DNA of 64,000 nucleotides from an uncultured virus (IMG/VR IMGVR_UViG_3300005965_000003) (Duplodnaviria > Heunggongvirae > Uroviricota > Caudoviricetes). A program made the translations under genes and the position numbers. Below are positions 2,928 to 45,600 of the stretch, piece by piece (position 1 is the stretch's first letter; each line of letters begins with the position of its first letter). Location of the stretch: IMG/VR virus record IMGVR_UViG_3300005965_000003, one strand, 5' to 3'. Below the pieces are notes generated by a model. It was not told the origin of the DNA. It saw only the letters and a program-made list of their open reading frames with translations, and did not search any database.

Positions 2928-3830
2928 ATGAAATCAAAGCCGAAAGTGATTATGACCTTGGGGCTTTCAGGTTGTGGCAAAACGACCTGGGCAAAACAGG
3001 TAATGGCAGATAATCCTGGTATGTACAAAAGAGTGAATAAAGACGATTTGAGAGAGCTTCTGGACCTTAGTGTTCACAGTAAAAGTAATGAGAAATTCGT
3101 CCAGAGCGTAAGGGACTTTATCATCTTAGAAGCCGTAAAAAATGGAAAATCAGTCATCAATGACGATACAAATCTACACCCGAAGCATGAAGAGCAGATT
3201 CGTGAGCTCGTAAAAGATTATGCAGATGTCGAAATAAAATCCTTTATGGATGTACCTATAGATGAGTGTATCCGCCGAGATTCTATGAGGACCGGTAAAG
3301 CTCATCTGGGGGCTAAGATTATACGATCACAGTGGAGCCAGTACAAGAAGTGGCGAAATATCGGACAAAGTCCCTCACCGCTTGTATACAATGAAAATTT
3401 GCCCTGTTGTGTCATTTTCGATATGGACGGGACTTTAGCTCTAATTAAAGATCGCAGTCCTTACGACACTGCCCGGGCTATAAACGATGAGGTAAATCTC
3501 CCGGTAATGCTTCTGGTGAATGGCTATATAAAAATGGTGGTACCTGGTATAGATAATGATCCTAAGATTTTTATAGTTACAGGTCGTGAAGATAAATTTG
3601 AGCAGGTTACCAGAGATTGGCTCGACAAGCACAACATCTATTTTGATGATCTTTTCATGCGCCCCGCTGGTAATAGGGACAAGGATATTGTCATCAAAAA
3701 ACAGATTTATGAGAAACACATAAAGGATAAGTACAACGTACTTGCTATTTATGAGGACAGGAATCAGGTAGTTCAAATGTACAGAGAACTCGGATTGCCC
3801 GTTTTTCAAGTAGCTGACGGAGATTATTAA
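2928..3830 (+). CDS. pseT: polynucleotide 5'-kinase/3'-phosphatase (T4 PseT-like), copy 1
   Basis: GLSGCGKTT P-loop, DDTNL; C-terminal HAD FDMDGTLA, VTGR, EDR..VV.MYR. Confidence 0.9.
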   Translation: MKSKPKVIMTLGLSGCGKTTWAKQVMADNPGMYKRVNKDDLRELLDLSVHSKSNEKFVQSVRDFIILEAVKNGKSVINDDTNLHPKHEEQIRELVKDYADVEIKSFMDVPIDECIRRDSMRTGKAHLGAKIIRSQWSQYKKWRNIGQSPSPLVYNENLPCCVIFDMDGTLALIKDRSPYDTARAINDEVNLPVMLLVNGYIKMVVPGIDNDPKIFIVTGREDKFEQVTRDWLDKHNIYFDDLFMRPAGNRDKDIVIKKQIYEKHIKDKYNVLAIYEDRNQVVQMYRELGLPVFQVADGDY

Positions 3831-5356: not shown

Positions 5357-5984
5357 TCCGCACCTTAACCCTACTTTCTTATCAGATACTATCAATCTGA
5401 TAAGGTCTTGCTATACCGAGAGGCACAGACACTACCATAACTTTTTTCATCTTTCGGAGTGCGTGAAAGAAGCTGAAGTAATAGAAGGTAAATTTTCTAA
5501 TTATGACGCAGCTCTGTTTGCTCTGATCTATCATGATTTATATTGGATTCCGAATAGTAAGACAAACGAAGAAATGAGCGCTGACAGAGCCTATTACGAT
5601 GCTCACCAATTGGGGATGAGCAAAGATTTTTGCAATACTGTAAGAAGTCTTATCCTTTCTACTCGCCACAATAGTACAGACGTTGATAATTTAGATACTG
5701 CTCTTGTAAGAGATATAGACTTTTGTATCCTCGGGAAGGATCCAGGGCATTATCTTTGCTACGAGTCCGGGGTGAAACTTGAATACACAAGTTTCTTCGA
5801 CAAAAATCACTATTTAGAAGGACGTGTTAAATTTCTGGAAATGATATTAAGAAGAAAACACATATTTTTTACGAATCTTTTTCAGGATAGATACGCAGAG
5901 CAAGCTCGAAAAAACATAAGGACTACTTTAGCTTGCTTTGAGAATAACGACTTTAACCTTACTAAGTGGATGTTGAGATACTAA
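5316..5984 (+). CDS. HD-superfamily metal-dependent phosphohydrolase
   Basis: HRHYHN..H, YHD, NEEMSA, DIDFCILG, ARKNI. Confidence 0.85.
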   Translation: MALNQLSKLFHKLNPHLNPTFLSDTINLIRSCYTERHRHYHNFFHLSECVKEAEVIEGKFSNYDAALFALIYHDLYWIPNSKTNEEMSADRAYYDAHQLGMSKDFCNTVRSLILSTRHNSTDVDNLDTALVRDIDFCILGKDPGHYLCYESGVKLEYTSFFDKNHYLEGRVKFLEMILRRKHIFFTNLFQDRYAEQARKNIRTTLACFENNDFNLTKWMLRY

Positions 5985-7012
5985 TGACTTTACTCTCTCG
6001 TGATAAATTTAGAGAGACAGTATTCCAAAGGGACAATTACAAGTGCGTCGTCTGTGGAGCTCCCGCAGTAGATGCCCATCACATAATTGATAGATCTCTT
6101 TGGGACGATGGGGGATACTATTTAGACAATGGAGTATCCCTATGCGAGGAGCACCACCTGGCTGCTGAACGAACCACCATCTCCTGCAACGATCTTAGGG
6201 AAAAAGCCAAAATTAAACAGAAAATCCTACCGGAGCATTTTTACTCAGATAGAGAATATGATAAGTGGGGTAATATTATATTGCCTACTGGAGTCAGAGT
6301 AAAAGGTGAGATTTTTCAAAATGAGAATGTACAAAAGATGCTGCGAGAGGGTAGCGTCTTACAGTTATTTTCTCCTTATATAAAGTATCCACGCACATAC
6401 CATTTTTCGTTTTCTCCTGGTCTTCAGAACGATGACAAGATGCATGAAAACGATGACTTCTTTCAGGGGAAAGAGGTTGTAGCGACTGTTAAGATGGATG
6501 GCGAAAATTTGACGATGTACCCAGACTATCTCCATGCCAGATCATTGGATTCTAAAAACCACCCATCGAGAAATTATGTAAAACAAATGCACGGTTATAT
6601 TTCTCACCAGATACCTACTGGGTGGAGGATATGTGGGGAAAATCTTTACGCAGAGCACTCAATACATTATGATAACCTGGAAGATTATTTCTTGGTCTTT
6701 TCTATCTGGGACGAAAACAACTTTTGTTTAAGCTGGGAAGATACCCAAGTCTATGCAAAAGTTTTAGGTTTAAAGTTAGTAGATGAAATCTATAAAGGCA
6801 TTTATGATAAAGAAAAAATTCTTAATGCTTTTAAACGCTATTCAGATAAATCCAAAGATGAAGTTGAGGGGTTTGTTGTACGGTTGTCCGAAAAGTTCCA
6901 TTATAAAGAATTTAGAAAAAAAGTGGCTAAATACGTACGCAGTAACCACGTACAGACGGATCAGTTTTGGATGAATAAACCGGTTGTGCCTAATCATTTG
7001 AGAAAAATATGA
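5984..7012 (+). CDS. HNH domain fused to ATP-dependent RNA ligase
   Basis: N-term RDNYKCVVC..DAHHI..NGVSLCEEHH; C-term KYPRTYH, KMDGEN, GEN, EGFV, AKYVR..H. Confidence 0.85.
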   Translation: MTLLSRDKFRETVFQRDNYKCVVCGAPAVDAHHIIDRSLWDDGGYYLDNGVSLCEEHHLAAERTTISCNDLREKAKIKQKILPEHFYSDREYDKWGNIILPTGVRVKGEIFQNENVQKMLREGSVLQLFSPYIKYPRTYHFSFSPGLQNDDKMHENDDFFQGKEVVATVKMDGENLTMYPDYLHARSLDSKNHPSRNYVKQMHGYISHQIPTGWRICGENLYAEHSIHYDNLEDYFLVFSIWDENNFCLSWEDTQVYAKVLGLKLVDEIYKGIYDKEKILNAFKRYSDKSKDEVEGFVVRLSEKFHYKEFRKKVAKYVRSNHVQTDQFWMNKPVVPNHLRKI

Positions 7013-7899
7013 GAACAATTATTCTAACCAAAGGGCTACCTGGATCAGGAAAGAGCACCTGGGCCAAAAAAGAAGTCATAGCACACCCTGGGAAGTACAT
7101 TCGTATAAACCGGGACCTGATGCGCTCTATGCTACTCTGTGGAGAAGGTAATCAAAGAATGGAGAATATGATTACATCCTTCAGGGATAGGATGGTAGAA
7201 ACATCCTTAGCCAAGGGTTTTGATATAATTTTAGATGACACCAACTTGAGTGAGCGTCACTTTCGGGCTATGATAGACATCGCTGATAGATTTGGTAACG
7301 TCCAGGTAATAGAAAAATTCTTTGATACCAGCTTAAAAGAATGTCTGAAAAACAACGAAAATAGAGAAAACCCGGTACCCCCGCATATCATTAAAAAGAT
7401 GCATGATAGATATCTAAAGAACAAAAAGGTAGAAGCAAGAACATACTTCTCTCCCCCTAAAAAATTAAAAAAAGAAGACGAAAGCAAAACCTCAGCTTTT
7501 ATTTTGGATATAGACGGCACTCTAGCCTTGAACCTCGGTAAAAGAGATTATTATGATCTCTCTACTGTTCTTAACGATGATCCTCATACAGATATTATTA
7601 CGATAGCCAATGCCTTAAAGAAGGCTGGGCACACTATAATTATAGTCTCTGGCAGGGATGACGTTAGCAAAGAAGACACAATTCTATGGTTAAATAGCCA
7701 CGGCGTGCTTTTTGACGAGATCTATATGAGAAAAACCGGAGACGTGCGAAAGGATTGGATAATTAAAGAAGAATTTTATAATAGGCATCTGAAAAACAAG
7801 TACGCCATTAAAGGTGTAATTGATGATAGGCCTCAAGTGGTCCGGATGTGGAGAAGAATAGGAATGACCGCTCTTCAAATAAACGATTTTGATTTTTAG
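7009..7899 (+). CDS. pseT: polynucleotide 5'-kinase/3'-phosphatase, copy 2
   Basis: GLPGSGKST, INRD, DDTNL; LDIDGTLA, VSGR, DDRPQVVRMWR. Confidence 0.9.
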   Translation: MRTIILTKGLPGSGKSTWAKKEVIAHPGKYIRINRDLMRSMLLCGEGNQRMENMITSFRDRMVETSLAKGFDIILDDTNLSERHFRAMIDIADRFGNVQVIEKFFDTSLKECLKNNENRENPVPPHIIKKMHDRYLKNKKVEARTYFSPPKKLKKEDESKTSAFILDIDGTLALNLGKRDYYDLSTVLNDDPHTDIITIANALKKAGHTIIIVSGRDDVSKEDTILWLNSHGVLFDEIYMRKTGDVRKDWIIKEEFYNRHLKNKYAIKGVIDDRPQVVRMWRRIGMTALQINDFDF

Positions 7900-33263: not shown

Positions 33264-33665
33264 CCATCCCGATAAGTATTACATCTCCATAATACCCCCC
33301 TTTAAGGGCTTAATACCTCCCCCCTTTTTTCACCATATCTCCGTATCTCTATATCTATTAAGATGTTAGGTTTGGGAAGGTCTGAGTAGGGTTTAGGTAC
33401 TTGCTGGTTACTTGCTGGGATGCCTGTAGGGTCGGTAAGGTAAGGTAGGGTTTAGGTAGGGTTGGGGGAGTTTAGGTAGCTGTCTGATCAGTTTCTTTCC
33501 CAAAGAACCTGGGCAGAAGGTGGGGGGGTGTTAGGTAGCTGCAGAAACATCGAATTTTACTGGGGCTTCGAAAATTGAAATCGCAAAATACCGAAAATTT
33601 GTGTGTACCTCAAGCGGGCCTGCGGGCCTCTGAGGCCTTTTTCCTATATTATAGTGTCTTTACAA

Positions 33666-33935
33666 ATTCCTGAAAAATGGAAAAAAAATTTCAGCTGAAA
33701 ATATTTGATTCTTGCCTATATGTATTAGTTAGGTGAGATAGATATTTCCACTATATTTTATTCCTGAAAAATGGAAAAAAAGATTTTAGTTGAAAATATC
33801 CGATTCTTGCCTATATGTATTAGTTAGGTGAGATAGATAGGTGAGATAGATATTTCCACTATATTTTATTCCTGAAAAATGGAAAAAAAGATTTTAGTTG
33901 AAAATATCCGATTCTTGCCTATATGTATTAGTTAG
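33666..33935 (+). repeat. three tandem AT-rich ~94-108-bp repeats, third partial
   Basis: Units start ATTCCTGAAAAATGGAAAA at 33666, 33760, 33868; share GATTCTTGCCTATATGTATTAGTTAG. Confidence 0.95.
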
Positions 33936-34363: not shown

Positions 34364-34478
34364 GACTCCGAACAGCACCGGAGTCTAAACATAGTGCTGG
34401 CAGCCATGCCCTAACGGGCATGACCGTCGCGGGCTGTACGATGCCCGCCATTGCCCCACGTACGGGGAAAAAAGATAA
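34364..34478 (+). ncRNA. structured element family 1 (H-type pseudoknot + hairpins); copies at 36178-36290 and, pseudoknot only, 38151-38184
   Basis: Compensatory changes between copies; conserved CTAAACATA linker. Confidence 0.7.
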
Positions 34479-35433: not shown

Positions 35434-35437
35434 TCTT

Positions 35438-35507: not shown

Positions 35508-35572
35508 TGCTTGGCGGCTGACTACTGCCAGGCATTTTTTATAGATAGCCGGACTGGTCAACCGGCAATAAC
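35508..35572 (+). ncRNA. structured element family 2 (hairpin-T6-hairpin, complementary loops); copy at 35838-35903
   Basis: Covarying 10-bp stems; loop TGAC(T/C)A complementary to loop TGGTCA. Confidence 0.65.
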
Positions 35573-35586
35573 AGAAAAGGGGTTAT

Positions 35587-37151
35587 ATGTTGAGTAAATC
35601 TAATGCTCGCCGCCTGGCGGGCTCCCTGGGCGAGGATAAACTCGCCAACAACCCCGGGCATACCTGCACGGTGTGCGGGGTTGTTCTTTCCGAGGGTGAG
35701 GGAGTTGACTCCCTCACCCTCACGGGTGAGCCTCTGTGCGAGGCTCATCTCTGGGATGCAATTAATTAGCATCCTGCCGTCAGCCCATAACACGGGGGTA
35801 CGCCATCACCCCGGCAACAGAAGGCAATGTTTTCTACTGCCTGACGGCATGACCACCGTCAGGCATTTTTTATAGACTGTCGGCCTGGTCAACCGGCATT
35901 AACCCAATGGAATGGGGGTTATTATGAAAAAAGCCGCGACCGCCGCTGAACGGCGGTCAAAAAAGCGGGCCGCAGAAGCTCGCCGTAAAGCAATCTGGCG
36001 TGGGGTTTGCCTTACCCACAAGGCGGGCCGCGAGCTCGCCTTCTTCGGTATTATTACCGCTCTCGGGCTGAAGCTGCCCGAAATTGGTGCCAGCGCCTGG
36101 CACCACCTGACCGCCTTTGCGGTCAGCACTTGGATGCAGGTGCTGACCGTTTTTGGTCTCGCCTAAACGGCGGGACCGCCCCGAACGGTACCGGGGCCTA
36201 AACATAGTACCGGCAGTCATGGTTTATAGCCATGGCCGTCGCGGGCTGTACGATGCCCGTCTATGCCCCACGTACGGGGAAAACAGATAACACACTCTAA
36301 ACAGAGAGGACCACCCATGAACCAGCTAATTTTGGACGCCCTTAAACAATCACTCGCCCACAAAGAGGCGAATGACTGTGACTGTGAGAGTCTATACGGT
36401 GAGACCCAACTACAACTCCGAGAAGGGGTTGTTTATGCTGTTGTTAAGACGCACAGCATAAACCCGATGACTGACGAGCTCCCCGAGCCCGCCGAAGGTG
36501 TTAAGCGGTTCAGGGAGTACATTAACTCGGGCCACGCATTCTATTATGATTGCGTGCCACTCGCTTCATAAACCGGATGCCCATAACACGGGGGCATTAT
36601 AATACCGTGTCCACGAATAGGGACGAAACAAAACGGGTTCGTGCTGATGTGTCCCGCCCGATAGATAACATCCTAAACAGAGGAGCCTAAACATGGTTAC
36701 CAAAACACTTCCCGGTACCCTGGTTCTCAACATCCTTGAATCGGAATTCGTGGTCACGCACCACGACATCCCGCAGTTCGCGGGGGCCACTCACAACAAG
36801 TGCTTCGAGTGGCTCTTGAAGAATCAGTCGTGCTCGGTCAAAGAAGCGACCGAACATCAGGGATGGGCAATCAAGACCCGTGACGAGATCGTTGAGGATC
36901 CCGACCCCGAAACGATAGTCCGGATCGGGCGGTATGGGAAGTTCGGCTCCCGGAAAGCCATCCGGGAATTGTGTCGGGTTTCCGATACCATGCAGAAGCA
37001 GGAACGGGTGTCCGGCTTCATTGCCGGGCACAAGGTAGAGGGCTACTTCACACGGTCGGAAATTACCGACCTGTGCAAGCAGGATCCTCCCTACGAGCCT
37101 TCTCCTGAAGAGAAGGCTGCGTTCAAGGATTGGGTTGATAACCATTCATAA
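35587..37151 (+). other. four small hypothetical genes (35587, 35912, 36317, 36693), each separated by a structured spacer
   Basis: RBS-bearing + ORFs; CxxC/CxxH in 35587. Confidence 0.65.
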
Positions 37152-37231
37152 TGGTGCTGTGGATCCCCCTTCGGGGGGACCGGGGGCATGTCTAATCAAT
37201 AAGCACGGAAGGCCCCGAAAAAGATTAGACA
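37150..37231 (+). ncRNA. structured element family 3 (three interlaced helices); copies at 38964-39050 and 41520-41597
   Basis: GGT(G/A)CTGTGG start; all three pairings covary across copies. Confidence 0.7.
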
Positions 37232-37352
37232 CTACAGATGAAAGGACTGAACATGATTCAGGAAATAATCATTCTTGCTGTAACCTTCGGGCTCCCCTGC
37301 TGTGTGGGAGCTCTTTTGTTATGGCCCGAAGATAAACCTACAAAAGAAAGGG

Positions 37353-38126
37353 ATGGCCATGAGCCTACACATCGATAACCTGGTCCTTGAAGTGACCAGA
37401 AAATGCAACATGAAGTGCCAGCACTGCCTACGGGGCAGTGCTCAGCGGATGGATATGCCCAGGCACGTCATGTTCCGGACGCTCCGGGATGTGAGTTCTA
37501 TTCACTGCCTCACCCTCACGGGGGGTGAGCCGAGCATGGTCCCGGATGTGTTGGAAAATCTTCGTTCTGAACTCATCTGTAACCGCGTGGATATCAATTA
37601 CTTCTACGTGGTGACAAATGCCCACAGCACAAGGAACCGTAGCCGGTTCATTGAGTTCCTGGACTGGCTTAATGACTACACTGACGAACCAGAGATGAAT
37701 GCACTCGTCGTGTCTCAAGATCAGTTCCACAAAGCTGAACACGAGCCTAAGTGGAACGGTTTTGTGGACGAATGGGGTGAGCCTCTGCCCTACTTCCACC
37801 GGGAAGAGCGTCAACAGTACATCACATACGTCCTGAACGAAGGACGTGCTGTTGAACTGGGTACCGCAACCGCTGACCGCAAGGAACAGCGGGGGTGGGA
37901 ACTCACCCAGTGGGAGGAGTACGGCGAGATTCAGGTCATGGAGAATGAAGTATACGTTTCTGCCAATGGTAACGTCACAGGCTGTTGTGACATGGCTTTC
38001 AAGCGTATAGACGCTGAAGCCTATGGCAATGTTCTTCATGAAGATCTCGAAACCATTATCCTTCGGCACGGTGAGTGGTCGAAGGAATCAATACAGAACC
38101 AACAGACAGAGGAGGTCGCCGCTTAA
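37353..38126 (+). CDS. radical SAM protein with SPASM/twitch-like C-terminus
   Basis: EVTRKCNMKCQHC, LTGGEP, VVTN, YVSANGNVTGCC..YGNV. Confidence 0.9.
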   Translation: MAMSLHIDNLVLEVTRKCNMKCQHCLRGSAQRMDMPRHVMFRTLRDVSSIHCLTLTGGEPSMVPDVLENLRSELICNRVDINYFYVVTNAHSTRNRSRFIEFLDWLNDYTDEPEMNALVVSQDQFHKAEHEPKWNGFVDEWGEPLPYFHREERQQYITYVLNEGRAVELGTATADRKEQRGWELTQWEEYGEIQVMENEVYVSANGNVTGCCDMAFKRIDAEAYGNVLHEDLETIILRHGEWSKESIQNQQTEEVAA

Positions 38127-38228
38127 AGAAACAGAATGGGGTTTGGTTGTCGTCCTTCCCCGAGCGGACGCTAAACATATCGGGTGTACTCAACAACAAT
38201 CCCTTACTTATTCGAAAGGAGCCATACC

Positions 38229-38861
38229 GTGGCTAACACTATCGCTATTCAGACCAACGCCGACCGCCAGTCTAATATCCGGGAAATATTCAACGGGTTT
38301 CGCTTCAACAACGATGTGACCGAGCGGATTGAGCTGTTGAATGACCCTCGGTCCTTCTCTCTTCATGACCTGAATTTTTACCGGGGGCTGTACCAGCAGT
38401 TCAAGGAGAAGCCCAACAAGCGCTTCCCCAAGGGTGTCCTCGGTGAGATCGAGGAGCTCCAGGCCGAGCGCGACGATCTTAAGGAGCGGGGTCGGTCGAT
38501 GGACTACAAGAAAGTCCTGAGGCTGGAACAGCTCAAAGGTAACCTGCTCCGGCTCGAAAAGATGCTTACGGTGTTGGAGACCGCTATCGCTGAGCGTAAG
38601 CTCGCGATAACGGAAAAGAAGCTGGAGGAGGCTAAGGCTCAGAAGCCTGCGGCTCCCATCGGGAAGTGGGAGCGGGATGTGGTGATCAACAAGGCCGAAG
38701 CGGCCTCCCGCCTCGGGGGAGGGGACATCCTGAAGCGCAAGCTGAAGCACGCTAAGGACCACGGCAAGACCGTGATCCAGATGCTCAGCAATATCCAGCG
38801 CCTCTCCTTCGAGCCCTGCGGGGCAACCATCCGCTACATTCTTGAGAAGCGGGTGGGCTAA
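38229..38861 (+). CDS. coiled-coil hypothetical protein (GTG start)
   Basis: AAGGAG RBS; strong codon bias. Confidence 0.7.
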   Translation: MANTIAIQTNADRQSNIREIFNGFRFNNDVTERIELLNDPRSFSLHDLNFYRGLYQQFKEKPNKRFPKGVLGEIEELQAERDDLKERGRSMDYKKVLRLEQLKGNLLRLEKMLTVLETAIAERKLAITEKKLEEAKAQKPAAPIGKWERDVVINKAEAASRLGGGDILKRKLKHAKDHGKTVIQMLSNIQRLSFEPCGATIRYILEKRVG

Positions 38862-39663
38862 CCTTCACGGGGAGGTAAACCTTATGCCTCCGCTAAATTC
38901 CCCCCATCGCCGGGGACACCCTGAGGCATAGAAAGTGAGGTGTATCATGCGCTATCGTTAAACAATGGTACTGTGGGGGTCTGCTCATCGAGAGCGCCCT
39001 CGGGGACAGAGCCTGAGCATTAAGTACTGAAAGTCCCGAAAAAGCCAGGCATTACTAACCGAAAGGAGCCATACTATGGCACGCTCGAAGAAAGTTGACA
39101 GCATCACCCCGGCGTATTACCCTTGCGAGTCCTCTTGCGGACGGACTGCTCGTCCGCAAGAGGTCGATGACTACGAGAAATACGCCGAGCACTTTGAGGG
39201 TAACTACGGCGAAAAGATGAACATCACTTCTTTCCTCAAGGAGGTAATATGCTGAGAATCACCGGCGATATCAATGCAGTCCTGAACAAGGCCGTGGAGA
39301 CTAACAGTCTCCCGGCTCTTCAGGAGAAGGCAGTGACCCCGACACCAGCGAGCCTGGTGTTTGGTTTGACTGCTTCTATGAGGAGTAAGCATGAACCCTC
39401 GCCTGAAAAACGAGGCCCTCAGCATTGCTGGGGGCCTCTTCTCGAGGAGAGACCATAGTGTTAAGAAGAATTCGTAAGCTCCCTCCCCTCGCTGAGCATG
39501 ACGCCAGGCGTATCGCAAACGCCTGGTTTAAGTGGGGCGGTGACAAAGCGGAAAAGCTCTGGCAACAGCTCGTGACCAAACGAAAGATAAAGAAGTACGA
39601 AGCAATCATTTTTGCCGAGTACATCAGAGAGTTCTATGGAGACCTTCAACAAAAGGAGACAGC

Positions 39664-42600
39664 ATGAGCATAGTAACAGGTGTGATTCAGGCTAACAACG
39701 TCAGCTCTGAAGCCGTGATCAATGAGTTCATGAACAATGGAGTTGACCTCGGGTTTGAGGAGTACCTTGCCGAGAACGGTGAGGATGCTGCGGATGACTA
39801 CATGGACAACGGTGATAGCACCTACCTCTGCGGCTTCTACAAGAAAGAGGAAGGGCCGGATGCTGGTAAGTATGTCCCTGACCCTGACGCCCCATGCTCA
39901 GCCATCTTCAGCGCAGACCGGAACGTGATACAGGTTGTCCGCTCAAAATGGGTAGTCAGGGATGCACGATGGTGTTCCCCCTGCTATCCGGGACAGGCCG
40001 ATCTCGACTCTACTGACGGAGGCATCGAGGCATACACACTCCCCGAGGATTGGTTTGATATAGAGCATCCTCCGGTCAACCAGCCGGAATACATAGGATA
40101 AGTTGAATCTCTCGAATTCAGAAAGGACTAAACCATGTACAAAGAACTTGCATTCCCGAACGTGAAACGCTTGAGCGGGCTCTTTAGCTCGCTCAAGTAT
40201 TATGAGCCCGGCAAACGTGACCCTCACAGCCACAAGTACACCAAGATACACCCAACCGGACCAGAGATCTCGACCTTCTGTCAGATCACCGGGCCGGGTA
40301 TCGAAGGGTACCACACAGCCGACGCAGTCCCTAACAAGGTACTCGATAAGTACATCGCCAAGAACATGCTGGACATCGAAGGCGGTGTCTTCTTCGAGAT
40401 CGTTTGCCGTAAGGATGGTTCGGCTCTGGTGATCGTGAAGTACAATTCGATCATCGGAGATCGGTGGCTGGCAGAGATCCAGACCGATATGATTCCCGGT
40501 CTGGCTGAAGAAGAAGAAAAACACATAGCCGAGATGGCTGAACTAAAATCCTAAAGAAAGGTGGTCTCTCATGACTGACACACAGACACAGGTCAAGTCC
40601 AAAGTCGTCCTCTATAAAGGGGGCGGCTATGATGGGTGTATCTGGGAAGTGAACTGGTTTATGTTTGATGCCCAAGGCAACTGGCATAACTTGTACAGCT
40701 CAGGATACTCCGGCTTCAAGGATGACCAGGAGCACAAAGCCCGGGAGCTGTACAAGGAATGGGACACCGAAGTCCCCTCCGAAGAGTATGACTTCACGTA
40801 CGAAGGAGTCATGGAGGTGATAGATTTGGATAGAGATGAGTCCATCCTCTCGTTCTCGAAAGAGTACGAAACGGTGGTCACTCTGGCAGTCATCCGCACA
40901 GTCAACGACACCCTCGTTGAACAGGGTGAGAACGCCAAGATGTTCTTCAAATGTGACCATTGTGAGAAGCATATCTATCCCCTGTCCGAAGTCGAGGACG
41001 GGCATGTCGAGGGGCTCTCCGGGAACGGTGGGGTTGGATTCAGGGGTGACGAACTCTACTGTGATGAGTGTCACTTAAGTCTCTCCTGCGGGTACTGCGG
41101 GGAGTTTGACAGCGATACCCACAAGCAGGGCGGGTACTGCTCCTATCACTTTGAGACGGCTCTCAAGCGATGGCTGGAGAGCTTTGGGAGTGAGGGAATA
41201 CAGCACCTGTATGTCACAAACCTTAACGAGGTCGATATTGAGAACTATGTCGAGTGGGGTTTCTGCTTCGAGGACTGGATCAATACCGACCCTTCCGATG
41301 GTGAAGACATTCTCTGGATCATGAAGACAGACGAGCTGGATCGGTGGGGGATACATGAAGCTCGGTGGTACATCATCGAGGCTTCGTCAGAGAACCAAGC
41401 TCTCGACATCCTCACCGAGTGGACCGAGCGGAAACACTTTCAGATTGATATCTGGAAAGCTCGGGATTACATGGTGAAGAACATCGAAGAGCTGGAAAGG
41501 CATGTACACCATTAACCAAGGTGCTGTGGCTCCCTACGGGGAGCCGGGGTAGTATACAAACAGGATGAAAGCACTGAGACTACCCATTGAATCCTGTACT
41601 AACCACAACCAAAAGGAGGTTCTCATGAACCCGGATACCGAAACGACCGAACTGCTTTCGAAGGCTGACTATGAGAACGCTGTTCAGTCTCAGAATGCCT
41701 GCAACCTTTCAGGCGTTGTCTATTCACTGGCTTCCATCATGCCCAAGATCTGGAACGAAGCTCGGGCAAGAGAAAAGGGCACCAAGTGGGTCAACGAGCA
41801 CCCCATCTGTGCCTTGTTCGCTGAACAGATTTCCCACCTCTCGGGATGTGGGATAACGAACAACGATAGATACGGCACGCACATTAATTACTGTGAAGCG
41901 ATGGCTCAGGAGAACCGAGTCAAAGCTGCACAGTTTCTCCCGGAATACGCACCCCTTCAGAAGGAGGCTGGGATTCTGGCAGCACGGTAGTTCCCGTACG
42001 GCGATTGACTACCCTTTCGATCTGGTTAAGGAGGTTTGATATGATGACCAAGATGTTGTTCGCGCTGCACTTGATGGCAGCGAAGAGTGCTTTCTACACC
42101 AATCCCTATATGTACTGTGCCCCGGGAGGGGTCGACATCAACGAAGTCAACCGGGCAAAGAAAAAGAACCGCAGGAACAAGTCTCAGAAACGCAAAGCAA
42201 AAAGATAGGAGGGTTTAATGGTTGGTGATATCGTGATGACAGTCATACAGGGGCTTTATCCGGGTGGAATGTCCGCCTTCGAGGAAGAGGGCGGCTCTGT
42301 ATTCTACATCCCGGATGAAGAAATCCTGATCTATCACCCTTCCCTTGACCCCAAGGCAAAGGCGAAGATACTCAATTCCCTGAAGGGTCTGAACATAACC
42401 ATATCGTTTGTGTCCGCTGGAAACTTTGAGGACTTCCATATGGATCAGATCAAAGACTTCCAGGAGTATCTGATCATGAAGTTGATGGATCTGAAACTCA
42501 GTGCTGCAACGGTTCTGGTTTCCCGAGCCAGTATCTTCATCGGCATCCCGCACTACAAGAGTACTCAGATGGCTGTCAAACGTCTGAAGGATTTCCTCAC

Positions 42601-45600
42601 AACGTTTGAAGGTGTCGTGCGGGGTCACATCAAATGTCGGGATCGGATTGTCCGGTTCGGCAAGCCGGGACCAAAGACACGAGTCAGAAAGCACGCTCAG
42701 TCAAAGATCCAACCCGAGTATGGGAGACCGGATCGAGAACATACTATCACTGAGGATGACGTACTGAATCTCAAGATAGCTTTAGAGTCATCCAAATCAT
42801 TCGAAGAATTCCTCAACAACATATAAGGAGGTACTGATGAACGTGAACGTCACAAAAGATCAGCTCGCTCAGGCAATCGCTACCATGAAGCAGGCATACC
42901 AGTCCGAGAGCTTCAAGCAGCTCATGGATCTGGTCAAGAACAACCCTGAACTGAGTGCGTTCGTTGACGCGGACAGCATTAAGACGGTCACAGAGGTTGT
43001 TCATACTGCCCCTACGGTCGAGGTGGTCACCCCTGAGCGTAAGCCTCGGGTGGAGCTGAACAATGCCCCCAGCGGGCAGCACAGGCGGCTCAAGAAGCAG
43101 GTCAACAAGCTCCCTGTGAAGGAGCGGGAGCTGCTTCCTGAAGAGCGTGACCAGATTATCCAGTACATGAACAAGACACAGGATCTGATGCCCCACGACT
43201 CCGGTGAGGGTGATGGGATCTGTCAGCAGATGTGTGACAAGTTCAATGCTGAGAGTCCTCGCCTCAATCGGGTGTGGCCTTATCAGGTGAGCGGGTACTA
43301 CTCTCACCTGTGTCGGATGGCCATGAAGCCCAAAGATAACCGGGACGATTGGTTTGTGAGAGCCGTCGCCAAAGGATCGCTGACCGGCAATGTCCGTCCC
43401 TACTTCGGGGTCAATCTCCAGCGTCGGGTAGCCTCGAACTGGAGTAAGGCCCGCCGTGAGGAGTGGGAGCGCAAACAGGATCACGCTCAGATGCTGTCGG
43501 AAAGAATGGAAAAGGGAGTCCTTTAAGGGCTCCCTTCACTTTAACAAAGGAGTTTGTATGCCTCAGACAGTGAAGGAACTGCCGTGGTTCGATGAGTATG
43601 GTTGGGTACAACGTGACATCCCCCAGCCCGCAGTCGAAGCCTGCTATCACTCAGGTCAGTGTCAGGGTGACGTTGAGCACTGGCGTAAGGTGCTCAACTT
43701 TCAGGTGCCTCGACAGAAAGCCATCGACTATCTCAAGGAATACGGTGCCTGGGAAGTCGAAGAGATGAATGCATGGTCGGACGAAGAGCTTGCCGAGAAG
43801 GTGCTGTGGTTAGCCTGCGGAGACATCTCCGAACAGGGTGAATGGTTAGGACTCATACACTAAGGAGGACTCGTGGTACTGGATAAAGCCGTGGAAGTTG
43901 CCGAGGCTATCGGTAAGAAGGTTCGGGTCAGGCAGAAGGTCGTGAGCACGGGAGTGTTCACTGCCATCAATGCCGCCGAAGAGATTGTCGAGGAGGGCGG
44001 ATTCAAACCGGGCAGGCTCTGCGGTGATGCCCCTGTCGCAATCGCTCCGGGTGACTTCAACTATGTCGCCAAGTGGGCGAACATCAGCAGGGATGAATGG
44101 CCCAAGCTCAAGGGAGTCATTGTTTCGGAGGACTTCCGCAACGGTGATGCCTATATCTGTTACTTCGACTGAAGGAGATCTCATGGGTGATGGCACTGAC
44201 TATCAAATAGAAGAAGCATACGACTACACCGAGGATGAACTGTGGGGTTCTGGTTATGTCGTAAGCCTGATGGGAAGGTACGACCAAAACAAATCCGCTA
44301 AGATCGGTGACGTAATCAGCTGCCCGGTATGCGACAAACGATTTGTTAAGCGTACCCGCGATCATACCTTCTGCTCCAATGGTCGGAGAAAGAAGGGTGG
44401 TAACTGCAAAGACCGATACTGGAACACTGTCGATGATGAAAGGAGAGAACGTGCGAAGGCTTATAAAAAAGTATAAGGGCCACGAGATTGTTGAAGAAGA
44501 GGGCTTAATCATTGTCCACAAAGACGACAGTGATTATATAGTCGCTTTAGATGACTCTAAATCGAAAGGCCCCAAGTTTATTAACCTGAGCAATAACACT
44601 GTCGAGGCCGCTAAGGAATACATCGACTGGAAGGAGAAAGCATGTCAAAAAGATACTACACCCGTAAGCAACTCCTGAATAAGGAATGCACACATAGTGA
44701 GTACTATGCTCCCTTCATCTCCGAACGTATGGTGTGTATCGTCCTGAACCGTATTGGAAAGGAAAGGATATTAGCCAGCACAGACCCTAACTTTAATGAT
44801 ATTCCTCTAAAGGTCTGGGATAACCTGCCTTATCTGAATGGGGTGGGTGAGGTTTATAAAGAGAAGACAGGAGACTGGATGACACAGAGCTCCTGGGTGT
44901 GTATGTATAAAGAAGCCGCTCACAATATCAAACAAAAGGAGGAAGCATGCCTGAGATCTCCAAGGACATGATCGAGCACATCCGCGCCGTCATAGAGTAT
45001 GTCGAACCCAACGAACAGGAACACTACGAGTCCATGGTTGAGGAAGACCCTGACTACAAGCAAGAGAACCATGTCTACTACCACATACAAAGAGTCTCCC
45101 AATGGCTCGAACAGCAGGAGGAGTCATGAAGCATTCAATCCGATACATTCAGGTCCGGGTCGAGGTGGTCCACGATGAAGGCGTGGACCCCGAAGATGTC
45201 CTGAGTGAATGTGACTACAAGTTCGAGTCCACAAGCCCCGGTCAACAGATCCGGGACACAGAGATCCAAGCCTATTCAGAATCACCCTGGGAGTAGCCAT
45301 GAATAACTCACAGAAGTATGAGAACTCAATGATGTATTGGCACAACAACCCTCCCCCACCTTTTAACCCCGAGGCTGACCCTAAAGCAGGGGAACGCTAC
45401 GAGATGGTCACAAAGAGCATGGTAGCTGACAACTACTATGCTAACCATACCCGTGAGGAATGCAAACAGGAATGGCGGAGACGCTATGAACTTCTAAAGG
45501 AGGAACAGGCATGAAACGTTTCGTACAAGCCCTTAAAAACCCCTCTCAGTTCGGATCGGGCACCCGGACTACCCCCGCGTTTGACAGCTTCTACCGCAAG

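Follow-up and report, generated by a model that had tools for sequence, protein, structure and literature searches.

A small pseudoknotted RNA family at cistron boundaries of phages, with the helix connectivity of type-CSG hammerheads and a different core

What kind of element is placed ahead of one gene after another in the operons of several phages? The question is raised by three similar intergenic sequences in a stretch of 64,000 nucleotides from an uncultured virus of the Caudoviricetes (IMG/VR record IMGVR_UViG_3300005965_000003), the whole of which is called the window here. A first-pass annotation, made from the letters alone, had described these sequences as three copies of an RNA fold in which helices interlace in the order A-B-C-A'-B'-C', and had suggested a new ribozyme or a nuclease-resistant RNA. 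All three copies were recovered, on the + strand, at 37150-37237 (c1), 38964-39058 (c2) and 41517-41603 (c3). A search for homologues by pattern scans and cmsearch, the latter a check that the annotation had proposed, showed that the family extends beyond the window to seven further records. It comprises at least 17 copies in eight records, namely the window, one metagenome contig (L093) and six viral contigs (G001 to G006), and it is a small pseudoknotted intercistronic phage RNA that combines the connectivity of type-CSG hammerheads, a permuted form discussed below, with a different core.

A conserved fold of four helices, three of them interlaced

Along the RNA, the parts follow one another as strand A, an unpaired G (G10), hairpin P1, strand B, linker L1, strand C, linker L2, strand A', linker J, strand B', linker L3 and strand C'. 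Linkers 1, 3 and 5 (G plus P1, L2 and L3) converge on the same side of all three interlaced helices, giving a four-way junction with P1, and linkers 2 and 4 (L1 and J) tie the far ends of the three helices, giving the A-B-C-A'-B'-C' knot. The family is a real structured RNA with four helices, three of which are interlaced. In an automatic alignment of 16 copies (A8), in which the four helices were treated as one pseudoknotted structure and from which c3 was left out because of its low score, standard pairs occupied 94.4% of 448 cells, which confirms the interlaced fold read from the window copies and shows that it is conserved. Shuffled versions of this alignment were 62.6% +/- 1.7 paired, with none of 500 shuffles reaching 94.4%, and only 31.6-48.0% of the cells were paired when the partners were slid by 1-3 columns.

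Compensatory changes were found in 24 of the 30 pairs of A8 (helix A, 4/5; helix B, 2/5; P1, 9/11; helix C, 9/9); the last two pairs of helix B covary, and its remaining three are invariant G-C. Only P1 and C were in the model to which A8 was fitted, so that the values of the alignment for these two are biased toward the structure, whereas helices A and B, which lay outside this search model, were paired in 96.2% and 100% of their cells, respectively. Smaller, earlier alignments gave the same pairing picture. When the seven copies of the window and L093 were registered by hand, helices A and B were each paired in 35 of 35 cells, and helix C, which has a different sequence in every copy, showed perfect complementarity over 7-10 bp in six of the seven; the seventh, c2, has 5+2 bp around one bulged A.

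The strand that folds is the coding strand, because an invariant U.G pair (16/16 copies) and other G.U pairs would be A-C mismatches on the opposite strand. Competing pairings were also considered. A minimum-energy alternative for c1 and c3, in which the A strand pairs with the start of B, was rejected since it is not kept in c2, and by eye the L093 copies would give only G.U pairs in it; helix A was therefore taken as the conserved pairing. Pairing of GUGG with CUAC in the tail, as well as the tail motif UAC itself, was likewise discarded, as both occur in the window and L093 alone and are missing from the viral copies.

In the 16 aligned copies, helix A consists of five pairs, the last of which is always U-A, and helix B reads GGGNN/NNCCC and lies directly 3' of P1. 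The hairpin had been described as variable, which holds for its upper stem and loop but not for its base, where U.G and G-C are each found in 16/16 copies and are followed by a covarying third pair (G-C in 11, A-U in 4, G-U in 1). Helix C is 6-10 bp long, apart from the bulged helix of c2, and L1 measures 1-8 nt (1-6 nt in every copy except c3). L2 reads A-W-U-A, with U and A in 16/16 copies each at its last two positions, and L3 reads N-A-A-A-A-A, with G in 10, U in 3 and A in 3 of the 16 copies at its first position, A in 13/16 at the second and A in 16/16 at the last four. Between A' and B', where a C(T/G)GA junction had been proposed from the window copies, no such motif is conserved; this linker, J, reads N-G-A-A-R throughout the family (G in 12, the two A in 15 and 16, and R in 14 of 16). 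The leading GGT(G/A)CTGTGG is present in the window copies as described, but it is specific to the window lineage, only U9, G10 and UG(G/A) being general. The divergent copy c3 keeps all four helices intact with its linkers off consensus, L2 having lost its UA and L3 its run of A, and its score of 17.7 bits with model R2 is no better than that of a chance match (17.6 bits). The parts of the three window copies are as follows.

37150-37237, +: copy c1, whole element (cmsearch 78.2 bits, E 3.7e-19)
37154-37231, +: c1, fold proper, 78 nt
37154-37158, +: c1, helix A 5' strand, GUGCU, partner 37202-37206 (AGCAC)
37159, +: c1, unpaired G10, which is G in 16/16 aligned copies and also in c3
37160-37182, +: c1, hairpin P1, base UGG...CCG, upper stem and loop variable
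37183-37187, +: c1, helix B 5' strand, GGGGC, abutting P1 without a linker, partner 37212-37216 (GCCCC)
37188, +: c1, linker L1, 1 nt
37189-37197, +: c1, helix C 5' strand, partner 37223-37231
37198-37201, +: c1, linker L2, AAUA (family consensus A-W-U-A)
37202-37206, +: c1, helix A 3' strand, AGCAC
37207-37211, +: c1, linker J, GGAAG (family consensus N-G-A-A-R)
37212-37216, +: c1, helix B 3' strand, GCCCC
37217-37222, +: c1, linker L3, GAAAAA (family consensus N-A-A-A-A-A)
37223-37231, +: c1, helix C 3' strand, partner 37189-37197
38964-39058, +: copy c2, whole element (cmsearch 72.3 bits)
38968-38972 with 39023-39027, +: c2, helix A
39003-39007 with 39033-39037, +: c2, helix B
38973 and 38974-39002, +: c2, unpaired G and hairpin P1
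39011-39018 with 39044-39050, +: c2, helix C, with the bulged A at 39016
39019-39022, 39028-39032 and 39038-39043, +: c2, linkers L2, J and L3
41517-41603, +: copy c3, divergent, whole element
41521-41525 with 41570-41574, +: c3, helix A
41547-41551 with 41581-41585, +: c3, helix B
41526 and 41527-41546, +: c3, unpaired G and hairpin P1
41560-41566 with 41591-41597, +: c3, helix C
41567-41569, 41575-41580 and 41586-41590, +: c3, linkers L2 (GAA), J and L3 (AUUGA)

Exact matches to the 10-mer GGTRCTGTGG number four in the window. The fourth, GGTGCTGTGG at 43800-43809 (+), lies in the 3' end of an open reading frame (ORF), with ACTAAGGAGG 50 nt further on. We rejected it as a copy because it is inside an ORF and lacks the helices, and the weak cmsearch match that spans it (43797-43857) reaches 10.5 bits at E 0.6. 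This sequence may be the remnant of a lost copy.

Distribution and genomic setting

Copies number three in the window, four in L093, two in each of G001, G002, G003 and G004, and one in each of G005 and G006; those of the viral records were counted by a model search across the whole record, and the total of 17 is a lower bound. A tightened pattern, run over metagenome contigs, gave 23 loci with a single true relative, L093, and the window's own record was not among the matches. The six viral contigs came from three scans with relaxed patterns, which gave 110, 37 and 94 loci. Other scans were negative: the first pattern scan of the viral contigs gave 73 loci and no true relative, two further pattern scans gave 0 loci and at least 116 loci, with none true among the matches listed for the latter, and a scan of genome contigs gave three loci, none of them true. 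A DNA search of a phage GenBank collection with 36000-43000 found no match, and two of the neighbouring proteins had no relatives in the viral contigs. Use of the radical SAM protein encoded behind c1 as a tblastn query found one record, MT836406.1 (35% identity), which is without the motif and without any Rfam family. Full-text searches of the literature (conserved 10-mers, permuted hammerheads and new ribozyme classes) returned no description of the motif, and the main text of a 2026 preprint on many new ribozyme classes makes no mention of phages or pseudoknots. The RNA family is previously undescribed, being absent from Rfam and from the literature searched.

Each of the window copies lies between two + strand ORFs, with the nearest upstream stop codon 3-7 bases ahead of helix A. 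For c1, the TAA of the upstream ORF is at 37149-37151, and an ATG with an AAGGA ribosome site follows at 37253; for c2, the nearest upstream stop is a TAA 7 nt ahead of helix A, and the next ATG is at 39076; for c3, the next ATG is at 41625. Similar spacing was seen in the copies examined across the family, the nearest upstream stop being 0-7 nt ahead of helix A in the 11 of them that follow an ORF; at L332, L333 and L334 this stop belongs to an upstream ORF on the same strand. The exception on the upstream side is Ld, in L093, which is preceded by a triple promoter-like repeat. Downstream, a GGAG- or AGGA-like ribosome site was found 5-35 nt past C' in 11 of the 12 tails checked, as well as in c1. 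It is outside the fold and free in nearly all copies examined, and minimum-energy folds leave it mostly unpaired. Neither promoters nor terminators were found at or beside the copies, and the window contains no tRNA or tmRNA.

The four copies of L093 (2009 bases) lie within 1.5 kb, one ahead of each of four consecutive small genes, and among them helix A can read ACUUU/AAAGU or GGUUU/AAACC, as compared with GUGCU/AGCAC. A small ORF and a radical SAM gene follow the last of them, as they follow c1. In the window, these genes are at 37253-37378 (41 aa) and 37359-38126 (both +), the second encoding a radical SAM protein with a weak SPASM signal; in L093, they are at 1537-1740 (67 aa) and 1751-2008, and the two radical SAM proteins are 44% identical. 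The small ORF and the radical SAM protein could form a peptide-modification pair.

No protein is common to all of the records compared, and the genes downstream of the copies are unrelated ORFans. The phage type of the window encodes two polynucleotide kinases along with an RNA ligase, the genes of G001 include those for an integrase, a small terminase and a methyltransferase, and G002 and G003 have baseplate and tail genes in common, followed by a ligase and a helicase; the fragment G004 has the same baseplate and tail genes as these two. The records represent at least three kinds of phage and not one group.

Known ribozymes are found in comparable positions. The only curated Rfam match in the window is a Twister-P5 ribozyme (RF02684; 35439-35498, +; 52.1 bits), which shares the strand of c1, lies 1.7 kb upstream of it and likewise has a stop codon before it and the next gene after it. 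Viral contig G001 contains a pistol ribozyme (RF02679; L332 7704-7770, +; 66.8 bits) that abuts a stop codon, stands 25 nt ahead of the next ATG, precedes the ribosome site and lies 1.2 kb upstream of two family copies on the same strand. Twister and pistol ribozymes of phage operons thus resemble the family in being on the coding strand, after the upstream stop and before the ribosome site, within runs of small ORFans, and in two records they are 1.2-1.7 kb from family copies; in contrast, their helix topology is different and they have no sequence or model similarity to it. For G002, G003, G005 and G006, the surroundings of the copies out to ~10 kb gave no match to an Rfam ribozyme, and neither did the 8.5 kb of G004 or the 2 kb of L093. 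Because the family occupies the slot of known self-cutting RNAs, it is a good candidate for a self-cutting or transcript-shaping RNA.

Related strains, represented by contigs of other metagenomes that are 80-95% alike, provided a second line of comparison. Their homology to the window ends exactly at 37153, where c1 starts, and at 35437, two bases ahead of the twister, and they join at 36579, just past the stop codon that precedes another element. The breaks at 37153 and 35437 therefore show that both RNAs travel with the downstream gene as module heads.

Comparison with known RNAs and proposed function

The first-pass annotation had been unable to assign the fold to twister, pistol, hatchet, HDV or hammerhead ribozymes, and had named a match to an existing Rfam model as a result that would speak against its proposal. 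The comparison gave none, and the exclusion of these classes stands. With Rfam 15, no family fell on any copy, either in the window at gathering scores or in 36000-43000 at E up to 10, and no match overlapped any copy in L093 and the viral contigs, although Rfam models do not describe pseudoknots or permuted forms, and remote or permuted relatives could escape them. The covariance models of twister, twister-sister, pistol, hatchet, HDV-like, hairpin and glmS ribozymes matched none of the copies. A hammerhead descriptor that covered all six block orders and left position 9 free gave no match at the three window copies, and a permuted-hammerhead descriptor gave only one weak, chance-like match on the other records.

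Elsewhere in the window, the six-order descriptor found a type-SGC hammerhead-like element at 36608-36655 (+), where it is flanked by the ORFs 36263-36571 and 36693-37151; its stems have 7, 5 and 3 pairs, and CUGAUGU stands in its core. Position 9 of this element is U instead of the canonical A, and no Rfam model matches it. Chance matches to the descriptor were few: each shuffled window gave 0-3, and in the window itself their stems reach no more than 4, 4 and 3 pairs.

Hammerheads are known in non-circular permutations, in which all three stems cross (Eckert et al. 2023, PMC10085705). As described there, type CSG has the order I, II, III, I', II', III', and its linkers 1, 3 and 5 are CUGAnGA, the UH site and GAAA; two transcripts of this type, 77-78 nt long, were cut into 48/49 + 29, so that the crossing topology is catalytically competent (PMC10085705). 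This precedent answers the worry, voiced in the first-pass annotation, that three such helices might not coexist, as natural type-CSG hammerheads have such crossings and are catalytically active.

The family shares much with type CSG. Its helices A, B and C, all of them covarying, have the same crossing order, and linkers 1, 3 and 5 meet at one junction. UA stands ahead of the stem I strand (16/16 aligned copies), an A-rich linker separates the stem II strand from that of stem III, and a short linker joins stems I and II at their far ends. The two are similar in size (~78 nt; c1 is 78 nt long and would split into 48 + 30), and both are known only from DNA metagenomes. However, CUGAnGA is found in 0/17 copies, its place being taken by G and hairpin P1, which gives the four-way junction, and the equivalent of G12 is G in only 10/16 copies, with L3 reading AUUGA in c3. 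Membership in the hammerhead class was rejected on these grounds, namely the lack of CUGAnGA, a G12 that is not invariant, and no descriptor match or Rfam match (E up to 10).

Other pseudoknotted RNAs provide partial likenesses. Some H-type pseudoknots, such as those of frameshift sites and of preQ1-I and SAM-II type riboswitches, have a stem 1 rich in G-C and a loop 3 rich in A. The family's helices B (GGGNN/NNCCC) and C, with L1 and the A-rich L3 (NAAAAA), recall this layout; the family differs in that its middle loop is 14 nt long and is paired to an upstream strand (helix A), that an extra hairpin sits under stem 1, and that it has no link to a frameshift site and does not sequester the ribosome site. 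Exoribonuclease-resistant RNAs of flaviviruses and plant viruses are compact multi-pseudoknot folds of 45-80 nt, in which the 5' strand is paired into a loop closed by another helix. The family resembles them in these traits; it has no sequence likeness or Rfam match to them and occurs in bacterial phages, and threading of its 5' end through a ring is only a candidate feature. As for riboswitches, the downstream ORFans are unrelated, and no terminator-like site was found at or beside any copy. Integron attC sites are imperfect hairpins with conserved R and L boxes (as generally given) that fold from the bottom strand; the family, in contrast to such a simple bottom-strand hairpin, has four helices with three crossings on the coding strand.

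We tentatively propose that the family is a self-cleaving, cis-acting element of polycistronic phage transcripts, with one copy per cistron boundary. Self-cleavage was ranked first because of the marks of a ribozyme candidate, the slot shared with twister and pistol, the behaviour as a module head and the gathering of conserved bases at one junction; many conserved unpaired bases and pseudoknots within a length of 50-80 nt have been used as marks of ribozyme candidates (PMC10085705). G10, the UA of L2, the GAA of J and the run of A in L3, all of them conserved and unpaired, would come together with the invariant U.G wobble at the junction as an active site. The RNA would then cut itself, most probably at the UA|A step where L2 meets A' (37201|37202 in c1, 39022|39023 in c2 and 41569|41570 in c3), a placement suggested because the conserved bases lie at the junction and L2 matches the cleavage-site block of type CSG. 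After the cut, the upstream cistron would keep hairpin P1 near its 3' end, and the downstream cistron would receive a leader with a 5'-OH and a free ribosome-binding site.

With somewhat less assurance, we suggest that the family might constitute a new class of small self-cleaving ribozyme, with its active site at a four-way junction in a triple pseudoknot and with CSG connectivity but a different catalytic strand. Such a class could have branched off from the hammerhead and reinvented its core, or it could have arisen independently on a scaffold of the same kind. In that case, phages might use the family, twister, pistol and permuted hammerheads interchangeably, so that operon transcripts would be cut into single-gene units.

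Several points weigh against self-cleavage. In a comparable test of a previous study, all 10 of the non-hammerhead motifs that had turned up next to ribozymes failed to cleave in vitro (PMC10085705). Among the seven records scanned over at least 8 kb, known ribozymes lie near the copies in only two. Copy c3 retains every helix but not the junction bases, a pattern that would be seen if the fold matters more than these bases. L1 is a single nucleotide in c1 and in the copy Lc, where helix C has 9-10 bp, and not all pairs may form together in these two copies. Finally, ~17-24 base pairs would still hold the products together after a cut at L2.

The main rival explanation, which we regard as somewhat less likely than self-cleavage, is a non-catalytic spacer, a stable knot that acts at cistron boundaries by shape alone. 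Such a spacer might insulate the downstream ribosome site from sequence upstream, block exonucleases or Rho loading, or end and start units of decay. It would fit a ribosome site that is free and outside the fold, linkers in c3 that have drifted while all helices remain, the variability of J and of the first base of L3, and the capture of the 5' strand in a loop closed by helix B, as is generally described for exonuclease-resistant RNAs. A spacer would have no need, however, for ~14 conserved unpaired bases and an invariant U.G across phages with unrelated neighbouring proteins, and simple hairpins, which occur elsewhere in the same operon, would suffice. Invariant junction bases among variable helices also suit an aptamer, and the B/C part is laid out as an H-type pseudoknot, as it is in several small riboswitches; the junction might bind a metal ion, a small molecule or one of the host's proteins, such as a ribosomal protein or an RNase, and tune the downstream cistron. 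We consider a sensor or operator of this kind improbable, as the downstream ORFans belong to no common family, neither a terminator nor an alternative structure that sequesters the ribosome site is evident, up to four copies occur in 1.5 kb ahead of four consecutive genes, and no protein partner is common to the three phage types.

More improbable still is a type-CSG permuted hammerhead with an unusual core. The helix order, the UA in 16/16 copies, the 'GAAA'-like linker, the similar size and split, and the presence of the type-SGC hammerhead-like element at 36608-36655 in the same operon speak for it, but they are set against the absence of CUGAnGA from all copies, an equivalent of G12 that is G in only 10/16, and the failure of both the six-order descriptor at the window copies and the Rfam hammerhead models at E up to 10. 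We give the least credence to an element that acts at the DNA level, as a recombination or cassette-boundary site folded from single-stranded DNA. Homology between related strains does break exactly at the 5' edge of c1; the twister, however, is an RNA with the same boundary behaviour, and every copy shares its neighbours' coding strand, with a stop codon on one side and a ribosome site on the other. DNA sites such as integron attC are not known to have anything like three crossing helices and conserved single-stranded runs of A.

The natural classes of small self-cleaving RNA are few, 12 according to one 2023 survey. The latest broad additions to them came from searches beside twister and hammerhead ribozymes, which is also the situation here. 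If self-cleavage is true, a class with a rare topology would be added, linked to the permuted hammerheads. If it is not, the family is still a well-defined and strongly covarying fold that several phage lineages have placed ahead of individual genes. In either case, it bears on the open question of why phages place ribozymes between cistrons, and its shortness, its modular build and the free choice of sequence in three of its helices would make it useful as a genetic insulator.

Other elements of the operon

The operon that holds the three copies contains further repeated elements. A second intergenic element of ~110 nt is present in two copies that are 83-92% alike, at 34368-34478 and 36181-36290 (+), each ahead of a gene; it has several G-C-rich hairpins and no Rfam match. 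At 35519-35572 and 35850-35903 (+), a terminator-like hairpin, TTTTTTATAGA and a second conserved hairpin are repeated with 85% likeness, each time upstream of a small gene.

The element-rich operon is headed by three tandem repeats of ~100 nt at 33631-33935 (+), each with a promoter-like TTGAAA ... TATA box, and the same arrangement, with units of ~60 nt, is found in L093 at 1-230. Exactly at the start of this operon, near ~34000, G+C rises from ~36% to 59% within 2 kb. The composition of the window is mosaic, with a G+C of 30-42% before ~34000 and 44-59% after it.

The two polynucleotide kinase genes and the RNA ligase gene of the window, the latter with an HNH-like N-terminus, are located at 2928-3830, 5966-7012 and 7009-7899 (+). 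Kinases and ligase make up a set for the healing and sealing of RNA ends, and the transcripts of this phage probably carry several 5'-OH and cyclic phosphate ends made by ribozymes.

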